In this document: positions 1,422 through 4,903 of the stretch, in pieces
How positions within the stretch are numbered: position 1 is the first letter of the stretch
Layout of the letters: every line of letters begins with the position of its first letter
Source: Trichodelitschia bisporula
Lineage: Eukaryota
DNA length: 64,000 bases
Assembly: GCA_010356995.1 (NCBI GenBank)
Contig: ML996695.1
Location: forward strand, 753,061-817,060
Reading direction: 5' to 3'
Position numbers and translations under genes: made by a program
The notes under the pieces: generated by a model
What the model was told of the DNA's origin: nothing
What the model saw: the letters and a program-made list of their open reading frames with translations, nothing else
Databases searched by the model: none

Positions 1422-1587
1422 GCCAAGCTTCATGTCACTCTTTCCTGCAGTATAGCTGGCGTTCCGCCCGCCCCTCTCTCCTCCTCGACCTCAACCCCCA
1501 ATTCTCCATCGTACTCACTAACTCGCCATCAACCCTACCTCTCCATTTCGCACCACCTAGCCATCCCAACACATCCCAACCGTCGTT

Positions 1588-3521
1588 ATGGCATGGCGTG
1601 GTGCTCAAGGAATTACCGGGTCCAACAACATACCTCTCGGCAATCGTCGGCGTTTTGGCGGAGACGACTCGATTGAAAGCGAAACTCCTCCCCCGCCGTC
1701 CATCGGCGAGAAGCGCGGCCGTAGCCCGGTTCGCGACGTCAAGAGTGAAGGCGGCCAGCGTCGGAAGAAGCGCAACCGATGGGGCGACGCGAGCGAGAAC
1801 AAGGCGGCCGGTCTGATGGGTCTGCCCACGGCTGTCATGGCACACATGACTAGCGAACAGCTTGATGCCTATGTGCTCTACCTGCGCATCGAAGAGATCA
1901 GCCAAAAGCTGCGCATCAACGAGGTTGTGCCTGCAGATGGTGACCGATCTCCCTCGCCGCCGCCCCAGTACGACAACTTCGGTCGTCGCGTCAACACCCG
2001 CGAGTCTCGCTACCGCAAGCGTCTCGAAGATGAGCGCCACAAACTTGTCGAGAAGGCAATGAAGACGATTCCGAAGTACAACCCGCCGCCAGACTACCGT
2101 CGGCCCACCAAGACGCAGGAGAAAGTCTACGTGCCTGTCAATGACTACCCAGAGATTAACTTCAGTATGATTGCTAACCCTCGATTCCATCCTAACTACA
2201 CATGGGATATCGCTGTTGCAGGCTGATATCTCCCCCTTCTTTTTATAAATGGCAAACACTAACACATGGGCTTCTTTGCTACTAACAGTTGGTCTCTTGA
2301 TCGGCCCCCGTGGCAATACACTCAAGAAGATGGAGGGCGAGTCCGGTGCCAAAATTGCCATTCGCGGCAAAGGCTCCGTTAAGGAGGGCAAGGGCCGTTC
2401 TGACGCCGCTCACACCAGCAACCAGGAAGAAGACTTGCACTGTCTAATCATGGCCGACACCGAGGAGAAGGTCAACAAGGCGAAGAAACTGATCAACAAC
2501 ATCATCGAGACGGTACTTAATCTCTCTTTCCTCCTTTCAAATACTAATTCTTGACCAGGCTGCGTCCATCCCGGAGGGCCAGAACGAGCTCAAACGCAAC
2601 CAACTTCGCGAGCTTGCTGCACTGAACGGAACGCTGCGTGATGACGAGAATCAAGCATGCCAGAATTGTACGTGGCCTCTCTACTAGGCGAGCTTGGCTA
2701 ACGAGACAGGTGGTCAAATCGGACATCGCAAGTACGACTGTCCGGAGCAACGGAACTTCACTGCAAACATCATCTGCCGTGTCTGCGGCAACGCCGGCCA
2801 CATGGCGCGTGACTGCCCCGACCGCCAGCGCGGAACGGACTGGCGCGGCGGCGATCGTGGTGTTGGTGGTGGTCCTCGCCCTGCGGGACGCATCGGGCCC
2901 GCGGACGTGGTCGACCGCGAGCTCGAGTCGCTCATGCACGAAATCTCCGGAGGCGTGTCTTCAGGTGGTGCGCAGCAGCTTCTGGAGTCGGGCCAGGGCC
3001 GTCACGACATGCCGCGCGACGACGCCAAGCCATGGGAGCGCCCTCCGCCTGGTGGTCCTGCGCCGTGGACGCAGCCTCGTAACGACCGTGATGCTGGCAG
3101 TGCTGCCCCTCCGTGGGCGTCGGCCAGCGGAGCTGGTCGTGGCGATACCTACGGTTATAACCAACAACCTGCTGGGTACAACATTCCTGCCGCAGCACAG
3201 TGGCAGGCTGCTGCCCCTCCCGTGGCTCCTGGTTACGATGCGTATGCTGCATATGGCTACAACGCTGCTCCTGGCGCCTATGGTGCCGCTCCCGGCGCTC
3301 CGGGTGCCATACCCCCTGGAATGCCTAGCATGCCTTCATACATGAACTACGGTAGTGCAACGATCCCTCCGCCTCCTCCGCCTTCCGGTGCTCCTCCTCC
3401 GCCCCCTCCAGGTGATGCCCCGCCTCCTCCTGTAAGTGCTCTCTGCATAATGGAAGATGAACAACTACTGACGAAGCAGCCACCGAATGACCAGCCCCCA
3501 CCGCCTCCTCCGGGCATGTAA
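1588..3521 (+). CDS. MSL5: Branchpoint-bridging protein / splicing factor 1 (KH-QUA2, two CCHC zinc knuckles, Pro-rich tail)
   Basis: Exons 1588-2164, 2289-2512, 2559-2667, 2710-3431, 3480-3521. Motifs: ULM 'RKKRNRW', '[10 protein letters not shown]', KH '[15 protein letters not shown]...IRGKGS', [28 protein letters not shown]. Confidence 0.97.
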
Positions 3522-4092
3522 GCGCGGCGACTGCAACTGACAATGGGTCTAGCACGGTTGCTAATTCCTGAGAGGATGCTGCAAGGTGGCTAAATTAACT
3601 AGGGACATTGTTTGAAAGGATGTTCGGTTGCCTGGCCTTAGGCCTGATCCTGCGGATACCTCTGGTTACTGACGGACTGATACGTTACTTTCCGACCTAG
3701 TTTTCCGCACGGTTGCGCCTCGAGATCAGCTGACTACTGTTGTGGCGAGGACTGACCTCCAATAAACGAGAAAGTGTTGTGCCGGAATCTAGTTAACGCG
3801 CAGGTCTCTCATGTGTATTACTACGTACAGCTCGTTTTGATTGAATATTGACGCGTTCTCTGCTATTATCTGATTGTCTGGGTGCTTGGTGTTAATGAGA
3901 TGTTCGAAAAGCGAGCAGAGAGCCCCACGGAAGCCGAAATTGTGCGCTTGATATCCCAGGAATCCCCACCTCATATTTTCCCATTGCACCATGTTCTCAC
4001 AAGTTCATCGCGCCGCCAATTTCTCCGTCCAGCGTCCGCGTACAAAAACTCATCAAAAATGGGAAAGCCACCTCGATTGAGGTGAGAAATTC

Positions 4093-4191
4093 GGTCTGAA
4101 CCGCGAGTCGAACGCGGGACCTCTTGCAGGCCAGTAGTTTACCGGGGTTCGGAAACCCTAAGCAAGAATCATACCACTAGACCATTCAGAC
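4093..4191 (-). tRNA. tRNA-Pro(AGG) with a 27-nt intron (4129-4155)
   Basis: Minus strand reads GTCTGAA-TGGTCTAGTGGTATGATT-CTTGC-TTAGGG-[intron]-T-GCAAG-AGGTC-CCGCGTTCGACTCGCGG-TTCAGAC-C. Acceptor, anticodon and T stems pair; mature length 72 nt; T5 runs downstream (plus-strand A5 at 4044-4048 and 4055-4059) can act as Pol III terminators. Confidence 0.95.
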
Positions 4192-4903
4192 ACCGAAGCT
4201 GATGGGGTGAGGTGAGGGCAACTTAAGTGAACAGAGTGGATCTGACGGAAACGCTGGAGGCACTGGAGACGGTAGAGGAAGGATGACAGGTTAGTTCTGG
4301 TGGATGGATGAGAATGTGCGTGAGACAAGGTGTGGCGGATGGAGTGAACGAGATGAGAAGAAGGGTGTTCTAATGTTGGAGTCAGAATCTGCTAGACCGG
4401 CTCCCTCTTAAAAGTACGGAATGACAACGAGCATGAAGTTCATCCGAGTGTAGCTATTAACTAGAACTACAATGCTCTTGTCCGGCCTCAGAAAATAAGC
4501 TTAACTTGATCCATCACCGAAGGTCACCAGTCAAACAAACCATCCAGTACATTTTCAATCTGTTTCTGATATCAATCTGCTTCTGCTTCAAACATCTAGC
4601 CTACGCTCCTTCCACGCCCCGTCAACTATTTCATTCTCAACGCCGAACGATGCATAGCAAAGAACTTTGTATTCTGGCCCTGCTTGCTCAACCAAGTTGA
4701 CAGAAAAGGGATTACGAGATGAAGGGAAAAAATCGAGCCATGGATGGTCAAGGAAACTGATGACAGGAGGTGAGAGACGCAGTGAGACCAAGGGCCAAGG
4801 GAAAAACACATGGGCATGTAGTAGGAGATAGATCCGGCAACGAAAAACCAAAGACAAATTGCGATAGAGATGGCCTCCCTCATCACCATTCCAAAACAAA
4901 AGC

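Follow-up and report, generated by a model that had tools for sequence, protein, structure and literature searches.

A Candidate Self-Regulatory Intron with an Array of Branch-Site Motifs in the Gene for the Fungal Branchpoint-Binding Protein

Introduction

How the levels of core spliceosome-assembly factors are set is poorly known. The subject here is the first intron of the gene for one such factor, the branchpoint-binding protein (BBP/SF1), in a 64,000-nucleotide (nt) stretch of DNA from Trichodelitschia bisporula (assembly GCA_010356995.1, contig ML996695.1, positions 753,061 to 817,060 of the forward strand). This whole stretch is referred to as the window, and coordinates are given in its numbering. 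Intron 1 is crowded with CTAAC, the core of the branch-site motif that BBP reads, and the arrangement recurs at orthologous loci. An earlier note on this DNA had suggested that excess BBP blocks the splicing of its own message. On the sequence comparisons presented below, the balance tips toward intron 1 being a conserved sensor of BBP level, which would exert negative feedback through decoy branch sites placed in a weak intron.

The BBP/SF1 Gene

A fungal BBP/SF1 is encoded at 1588–3521 on the plus strand, as identified by Pfam and by structure–sequence matches. Exon 1 (1588–2164, +) begins with the ATG at 1588, encodes the SF1 helix-hairpin domain (SF1-HH; PF16275, E 3.1e-43, profile positions 2–114 of 114), and ends in phase 1 (...AAC TTC A) at 2164, where a contig piece also ends. 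Exon 2 (2289–2512, +) harbors the KH domain (IGLLIGPRG...), which matches the Pfam family KH-I_KHDC4-BBP (PF22675, E 1.6e-20, profile positions 10–76 of 76), the yeast BBP (Msl5) structures 4wal/4wan (E 6e-21), and human SF1 1k1g (E 2e-19). Because exon 2 holds KH profile positions 10–76, intron 1 splits the N-terminal edge of this domain. Exon 3 (2559–2667, +) encodes the QUA2 helix, matching residues 100–128 of 4wan (E 9e-9), while exon 4 (2710–3431, +) carries a CCHC zinc knuckle that follows KH-QUA2 (Pfam zf-CCHC, PF00098, E 1.4e-9) and a proline-rich tail. Sequence inspection reveals a second CxxC...H...C pattern across the exon 3/4 junction. The last exon (3480–3521, +) runs through the stop codon TAA, and the open reading frame (ORF) ends at 3521. 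The available text of two reports describes the binding of UACUAAC by the yeast KH-QUA2 domain (PMC4338336, PMC3378887).

The exon–intron model is established by contigs from two small runs, X1 and X2, which come from one sample of one study and whose "RNA" label is a guess. These contigs join 2164^2289, 2512^2559, 2667^2710, and 3431^3480, all with GT..AG borders. Because they skip all four introns, the gene model, the intron lengths, and the productive splice directly after TACTAAC are confirmed. Intron 1 (2165–2288, +), whose joint is found in both X1 and X2, is 124 nt long. The other introns measure 42–48 nt, a disparity that the earlier note had pointed out and that the contig joints bear out. 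Intron 2 (2513–2558, +; 46 nt) is ordinary, with the branch motif CTAAT. Intron 3 (2668–2709, +; 42 nt) is likewise ordinary and has one CTAAC, the branch A of which lies 8 nt before the terminal G. In this intron, a GAG (2703–2705) located 3–4 nt past the branch A is bypassed for the CAG at +8, which fits the minimum of about 8 nt described below. Intron 4 (3432–3479, +; 48 nt) ends in a tandem acceptor, AAG-CAG (3474–3479), both AGs of which are in frame; the contigs take the second (3431^3480).

Elements of Intron 1

Four CTAAC motifs lie in the sense orientation within the 124 nt of intron 1, starting at 2174, 2192, 2259, and 2282. In 200 dinucleotide shuffles of the intron, the mean is 0.33 and the maximum 2. 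The plus strand of the window contains 30 CTAAC in total, and on either strand only two pairs lie within 40 nt of each other, both in intron 1. The positions that had been assigned to the features of this intron in the earlier note all proved correct on checking the sequence.

The intron opens with the non-consensus donor GTATGA (2165–2170, +), followed by TGCTAAC (2172–2178, +), the first site of a donor-side array, in which CTAAC starts at intron position +10. The second motif, CCTAAC (2191–2196, +), aligns in MAFFT with the third array site of the relatives. Next is a central hairpin, GGGAUAUCGCU...GGC.GAUAUCUC(C) (2204–2232, +), a reduced counterpart of the 23–68 nt hairpin of the relatives, with a minimum free energy of −12.3 kcal/mol (z −1.73; equalled by 10 of 200 shuffles). 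It contains TTGCAG (2216–2221, +), which provides the sole internal AG (2220–2221); the loop holds A2220, whereas G2221 is base-paired. This first AG, at intron position 56, falls about where the first AGs of the relatives do, within the hairpin. The TGA at 2224–2226 (+) ends the frame both upon retention of the intron (ORF 1561..2226) and upon use of the AG at 2221.

The third motif, CACTAAC (2257–2263, +), is the likely working branch site; its branch A (2262) lies 26 nt before G2288, and it aligns with the main ACTAAC block of the relatives. The subsequent ACATGGG (2264–2270, +) stands where the relatives have AC(Y)TAG. Downstream of the main branch site, a pyrimidine-rich tract, CTTCTTTGCT (2271–2280, +), leads up to the productive acceptor, where TACTAAC runs directly into the AG at 2287–2288 (2280–2288, +). 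The A of this fourth motif is 3 nt from the terminal G. As the shortest working distance is 8 nt, the TACTAAC at 2280 was rejected as a working branch site for AG 2288.

The 9-mer ACACATGGG occurs at 2198 and 2262, after the second and third CTAAC, and a third copy is found at 4806. The segments CCTAACTACACATGGG (2191–2206) and CACTAACACATGGG (2257–2270) have the appearance of a branch-site module that was duplicated locally, an event that would be lineage-specific; the 9-mer is absent in the relatives.

Conservation of the Intron among Relatives

Metagenome contigs were scanned with the exon 2 protein, yielding 80 loci at 92–99% identity. Both exon ends could be placed in 76 of these, and an intron is present at the identical site and phase in 73 of the 76. 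The three loci lacking it include a transcript (L014, discussed below). Together with the window, the sample comprises 63 distinct intron 1 sequences, of which 61 are at least 120 nt long, mostly 163–245 nt, such that the window intron is a short version among these 61 long introns. Grouping the loci at 90% identity across 330 coding bases yields 51 clusters, and 50 representative introns were used for several of the counts below.

The intron layout recurs in 50 of the 51 clusters. While identity at third codon positions is about 0.50, it is 0.75 across the first 24 bases of the intron, and the core ACTAACAC.TAGC is 80–99% conserved. Intron 1 is also retained where others have been lost (40 of 51 clusters have intron 2 and 19 of 48 have intron 3, both always short).

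The number of CTAAC per intron 1 has a median of 5 and a mean of 4.46 across the 63 distinct sequences, compared with 0.48 in shuffles. Introns 2 carry none, one, or two in 24, 27, and 2 cases, respectively, and introns 3 in 16, 9, and 1. The density of the motif is 24.5 per kb in intron 1 versus a background of 0.72 per kb. No other cluster of at least three CTAAC within 60 nt was found on either strand of the 281 kb of loci and the 64-kb window (about 345 kb). The 50 representatives hold 231 sense CTAAC and not one antisense GTTAG, a strand bias that speaks for an RNA-level rather than a DNA-level function. The conservation of the extra motifs, which the earlier note had proposed to check, is borne out by the orthologue alignment, in which the layout is strand-specific.

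Architecture of the Conserved Intron

The donor is GTATGA in 40 of the 61 distinct long introns and GTAAGT in none, whereas GTAAGT is the donor of 33 of 77 introns 2 and 3. Directly behind it lies an array of one to four CTAAC. The first starts at +10 in 46 introns, at +9 in 8, and at +6 in 5 of the 61, and in the MAFFT alignment the array sites of the relatives are located at about +10, +18, and +27, the spacing being 7–9 nt in 62 of 76 intervals. The base that precedes CTAAC distinguishes the sites: A at the main branch site in 44 of 47 cases versus C, T, or G at the donor-side sites in 101 of 125, such that the main site is the strong one and most of the array carries a suboptimal base at this position. 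A separate observation concerns four introns (L004, L020, L024, and L026) that begin with GTATACTAAC, such that a perfect TACTAAC extends over donor positions +4 to +10 and the next CTAAC follows 12 nt later.

The donor-side half is poor in AG, the first of which has a median position of 65 versus 26.5 under uniform placement. The central hairpin varies in sequence by clade. In 36 of the 50 representatives, its local fold is matched by at most 5 of 100 shuffles (median z −3.2), and in 19 of the 50 its 3′ arm enters a further (UCA)CUAAC; a motif behind the hairpin is part of the family layout. Compensatory change is observed in 4 of 16 hairpin pairs within one clade. It is this local hairpin alone that stands out, as the folding energy of the whole intron is not unusual (median z −0.4; 4 of 50 below −2). 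In one clade, an extra YAG (Y, pyrimidine) followed by CUUUUGAU occurs about 30 nt after the middle CTAAC.

At the acceptor side, the core ACTAACAC of the main ACTAAC branch site is 90–99% conserved; the CTAAC cores are the most conserved columns of the alignment. A block, UUUGAUCA(UAC), is found about 10–20 nt upstream of the main branch site and is kept in the alignment by many clades, including those whose donors are unable to pair with it. Pairing of the donor with the conserved (GA)UCAUAC ahead of that branch site is drawn by RNAfold in several introns and was rejected: covariation is not apparent by eye, and clades with a GUACGG donor keep UCAUAC.

Past the main branch A, 59 of the 61 introns have a YAG at a distance of 5–7 nt, with T at −3 in 49 and C in 10. 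In 64 control introns taken from these same genes, the working distance from branch A to G has a minimum of 8 nt and a mode of 10–11 nt (range 8–23), and this decoy YAG thus sits just under the shortest distance at which splicing is seen to work. The pyrimidine tract of the relatives' intron 1 is short. The productive acceptor ends in ACTAA(N)AG or ACTAAG in 43 of the 61, and the disfavoured A at acceptor position −3 is present in 38 of 61 versus 4 of 77 introns 2 and 3. The placement of motifs beside both splice sites, which had been remarked upon in the window, is therefore a trait of the family, with the first motif at +6 to +10 and ACTAA abutting the AG.

In all 50 representatives, retention of the intron brings an in-frame stop within it. 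Splicing to the decoy YAG would add 13–22 nt; among 57 introns, this would shift the frame in 46 and keep it in the other 11, with no stop in 10 of the latter. The earlier note had anticipated a premature stop in the window on retention and on use of the proximal acceptor; across the family, retention does bring one, but the decoy YAG would not always do so.

The Window Compared with the Family

The window intron is a trimmed version of this layout that keeps two motifs of the donor-side array, the central hairpin, the main branch site, and TACTAAC at the acceptor; the middle site is missing. Its first motif corresponds to array site 1 and its second to site 3, while at site 2 the relatives' CTCTAAC has degenerated to CTCGATTC. 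The conserved decoy YAG has been lost, because ACATGGG replaces AC(Y)TAG; among the 61 introns, it is missing only in the window and in L004.

This bears on the "poison" acceptor TTGCAG, which had been assigned a central role in the original proposal. Its position and the TGA stop behind it stand. However, TTGCAG has no sequence counterpart in the relatives and is located at the edge between the loop and the stem of the hairpin. The decoy acceptor that the family conserves is instead the YAG after the main branch A, an element that the window lacks. With CCTAAC as its branch site (26 nt away), AG 2221 could form a plausible 57-nt intron, and it stays a candidate only. The autoregulation idea as such is much strengthened by conservation, whereas this specific acceptor is not supported.

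Transcript Evidence

Among the metagenome loci, L014 is a spliced copy of L036, with exons that are 100% identical and a junction (2304|2499) at the distal AG, which documents the productive splice in a second species. Another sequence of note is L017 (1–1853), which shares 82% identity with L050. Four short introns of L050 are missing from it, yet intron 1 (207 nt) is kept, and one nucleotide is deleted where exons 3 and 4 meet. L017 may be a partly spliced transcript, which would amount to retention in RNA, or equally a lineage with intron loss, like the 69.6-kb genomic contig L062.

Proposed Mechanism of BBP-Level Sensing

Self-regulation via BBP binding is the best explanation of these features because the motif array is strand-specific and is confined to the BBP gene among about 345 kb, its sites are placed where they could not serve catalysis, the weak splice sites are conserved, and the intron is kept where others are lost. 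The steps proposed below are inferred on the known roles of BBP, U1, and U2AF/Mud2.

When BBP is scarce, the main branch site alone would be occupied, and splicing would take out intron 1. Surplus BBP, once the strong main site is filled, would go on to occupy the weaker decoys. Decoys on the donor side might then hinder the U1 small nuclear ribonucleoprotein (snRNP) or satisfy the BBP–U1 bridge locally, leading to a dead-end complex, while the decoy on the acceptor side would get in the way of pyrimidine-tract and AG recognition. The predicted outcome is an unspliced transcript whose frame ends inside the intron (in the window, at the TGA at 2224); in the relatives, splicing to the decoy YAG is an alternative outcome. 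By either route, no KH-containing protein would be made. The truncated product, SF1-HH without KH, might also titrate the U2AF/Mud2 partner.

Nonsense-mediated decay (NMD) cannot be the sole fate of such messages, since splicing to the decoy YAG would preserve the frame in 11 of 57 introns and meet no stop in 10 of those. Nuclear retention of unspliced RNA is a role of BBP in yeast, and retention of the BBP-bound unspliced RNA in the nucleus is considered as an alternative sink.

A broader formulation is offered tentatively, as a serious possibility. According to it, filamentous ascomycetes at large would share a homeostat for their core branch-site reader, in which decoys of graded affinity flank both splice sites, a decoy YAG lies slightly closer to the branch site than a working acceptor can, and internal AGs are hidden by a hairpin. 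Such a device would measure free BBP and switch the transcript between a productive and a dead-end path.

Several observations weigh against this interpretation, in addition to the in-frame decoy acceptors. The window itself is without two family elements, the middle site and the decoy YAG, and its hairpin taken alone is not significant (z −1.7; 31 of 100 shuffles as good in a second test). Exceptions also occur among the relatives: the introns of L001 and L002 are short (97 and 52 nt) with zero CTAAC, the clade of L041 and L049 is devoid of the donor-side array, and L003, on a 36-kb contig, has no intron at the site. The taxonomic span of the metagenome loci is inferred from divergence only. 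Finally, both RNA-derived data sets (the X1/X2 contigs and L014) contain the productive form only, and no contig spans intron 1 or splices to AG 2221; contigs drop rare forms and cannot prove their absence.

Alternative Explanations

The main rival, itself unlikely, reads the effect of the same array the other way round, as that of a splicing enhancer or capture platform. The extra sites would concentrate BBP locally on a weak intron and so keep the BBP message spliced under shortage, giving it priority access instead of shutting it off at excess. Its anatomy would equal that of negative feedback, the weak splice sites need help, and productive RNA is all that the contigs and L014 display. However, given the 8-nt minimum, motifs lying only 6–10 nt behind the donor or 3 nt ahead of the AG could not themselves act as branch sites, and both the decoy YAG and the donor-overlapping TACTAAC of four introns look obstructive. 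Moreover, circuits of this type usually serve to restrain a surplus of the factor, and an enhancer alone would not do so.

A reader other than BBP is improbable. Here, the U2 snRNP, an ACUAA-binding factor, or a nuclear-retention factor would occupy the motifs, and the intron would report the general load on the spliceosome. The motif doubles as the U2 pairing site, GUAGUA of the U2 snRNP being complementary to UACUAAC, and the main site extends to ACTAACAC. Furthermore, the available text of one report describes competition between QKI and SF1 for ACUAA in animals (PMC11483029). What argues for BBP instead is the confinement of the array to the BBP gene in the sequence surveyed, the pattern expected for self-recognition, and no alternative reader was identified in the present analysis.

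Still less probable is that the CTAAC motifs are incidental to another conserved element, such as a structured RNA, a small RNA borne by the intron, a peptide made from the retained intron, or an enhancer acting on the DNA. Such an element would account for the hairpin, whose local fold outdoes shuffles in 36 of 50 representatives, for the compensatory changes (4 of 16 pairs, one clade), and for the unexplained UUUGAUCA block before the main site. However, the CTAAC cores are themselves the most conserved columns, and no Rfam family was found at gathering score in four loci (L007, L016, L058, and L012). On positions 2100–2350 of the window, Rfam gives a single hit with E ≤ 1, MIAT_exon5_3 (2252–2347), which scores 8 bits where the gathering threshold is 90 (E 0.69) and is thus at chance level. 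A DNA-level element was rejected on the strictly sense orientation of the motifs (231 to 0), and a retained-intron peptide because the 7–9 nt spacing and the offsets of the first motif (+6, +9, or +10) keep no reading frame. A stwintron (spliceosomal twin intron) was likewise rejected, as there is no internal donor; the window intron has only two GT, namely the donor and a TGTTGC (2215–2216) that is not donor-like.

Chance, or a local duplication confined to the window's genome as the 9-mer ACACATGGG after two motifs might suggest, can be set aside almost entirely, being refuted by the four motifs observed against a shuffle mean of 0.33 and maximum of 2 and by the orthologues, where the layout is present in 50 of 51 diverged clusters.

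Elsewhere in the window, a region at about 4088–4195 on the minus strand appears tRNA-like by eye (a GGTTCGA-type arm and a possible intron); neither ARAGORN nor Rfam at gathering score reports a tRNA there.

Implications

If the BBP-level sensor is real, it would be the first autoregulatory circuit known for SF1/BBP, with copies of a constitutive splicing signal acting as the sensor. It would also offer a compact and tractable system, an intron of about 180 nt with separable elements, usable for following how branch-site occupancy leads to a splicing decision, how the proximity of AG to branch site acts, and how decoys hold introns unspliced. For annotation, the rule is that intron 1 should never be shortened to the nearer YAG; reading through it yields a truncated protein.

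Comparison with Known Systems

Neither a comparable intron in a fungal BBP/SF1 gene nor any autoregulation of SF1/BBP was found in the full-text literature searched, in which subscription journals are thinly covered, and a prior description is possible. The survey of fungal RNA motifs by Li and Breaker (PMC5640933) does not mention branch, SF1, or BBP. In the main text of an Arabidopsis SF1 iCLIP (individual-nucleotide crosslinking and immunoprecipitation) preprint, the string "autoregulat" is absent, while its supplements could list SF1's own gene as a target.

Autoregulatory unproductive splicing is exemplified by PTBP1, the SR proteins, and RBM39. The BBP intron resembles these in that copies of the motif recognized by the protein are concentrated in the pre-mRNA of its own gene, conservation is deep, and the predicted outcome is a transcript without a functional frame. 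In contrast to them, BBP is a constitutive branch-site reader, and its sites are copies of a core splicing signal beside both splice sites. BBP intron 1 also contains no poison cassette exon, and its unproductive isoform and dosage response are putative. By protein family, the closest case is the STAR protein Quaking, which, in the available text of one report, acts on ACUAA elements in its own transcripts (PMC5695090). Mammalian SF1 is a target of unproductive splicing driven by RBFOX2 and, in the accessible portion of that study, is listed only as cross-regulated (10.1101/2020.05.20.107375).

Tandem branch-site-like motifs able to hold SF1 from productive use are a property that the BBP intron has in common with the animal long noncoding RNA MIAT/Gomafu. 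The repeated (U)ACUAA(C) elements of this RNA were reportedly first described by Tsuiji and colleagues. The part of PMC11483029 that was available gives 16 ACUAA elements in MIAT/Gomafu and its interaction with SF1 and QKI. MIAT/Gomafu carries them in an exon and serves as a sponge in trans, whereas the BBP array is in cis, in the gene's own intron, and in fungi.

Within fungi, intronic autoregulation is represented by yeast ribosomal-protein genes, RPL30 being a further example besides RPL7B. The RPL7B intron, as described in the available text of its report, has a non-consensus branch site (UGCUAAC), a zipper stem, an alternative structure, and autoregulation (PMC12311795). It is similar to BBP intron 1 in being a fungal intron that combines weak signals with a conserved stem and in that the gene product inhibits its own splicing. 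In the yeast ribosomal-protein introns, however, the protein recognizes a structure that imitates its binding site on rRNA, while the presumed sites of BBP are linear copies of its usual target.

A further parallel is provided by introns that surplus, non-productive copies of splicing signals hold unspliced. Decoy exons have been described in detained introns. Repression of an intron with two branch-like sequences, both bound by QKI, is reported in the available text of PMC11483029. BBP intron 1 differs from such dual branch-site repression in that the proposed repressor, BBP, is normally an activator and in that decoys are placed at both the donor and the acceptor. The logic of the proposed circuit is thus common to known systems; what would be new is a sensor built from copies of a constitutive signal, with the reader of that signal as the protein being sensed.

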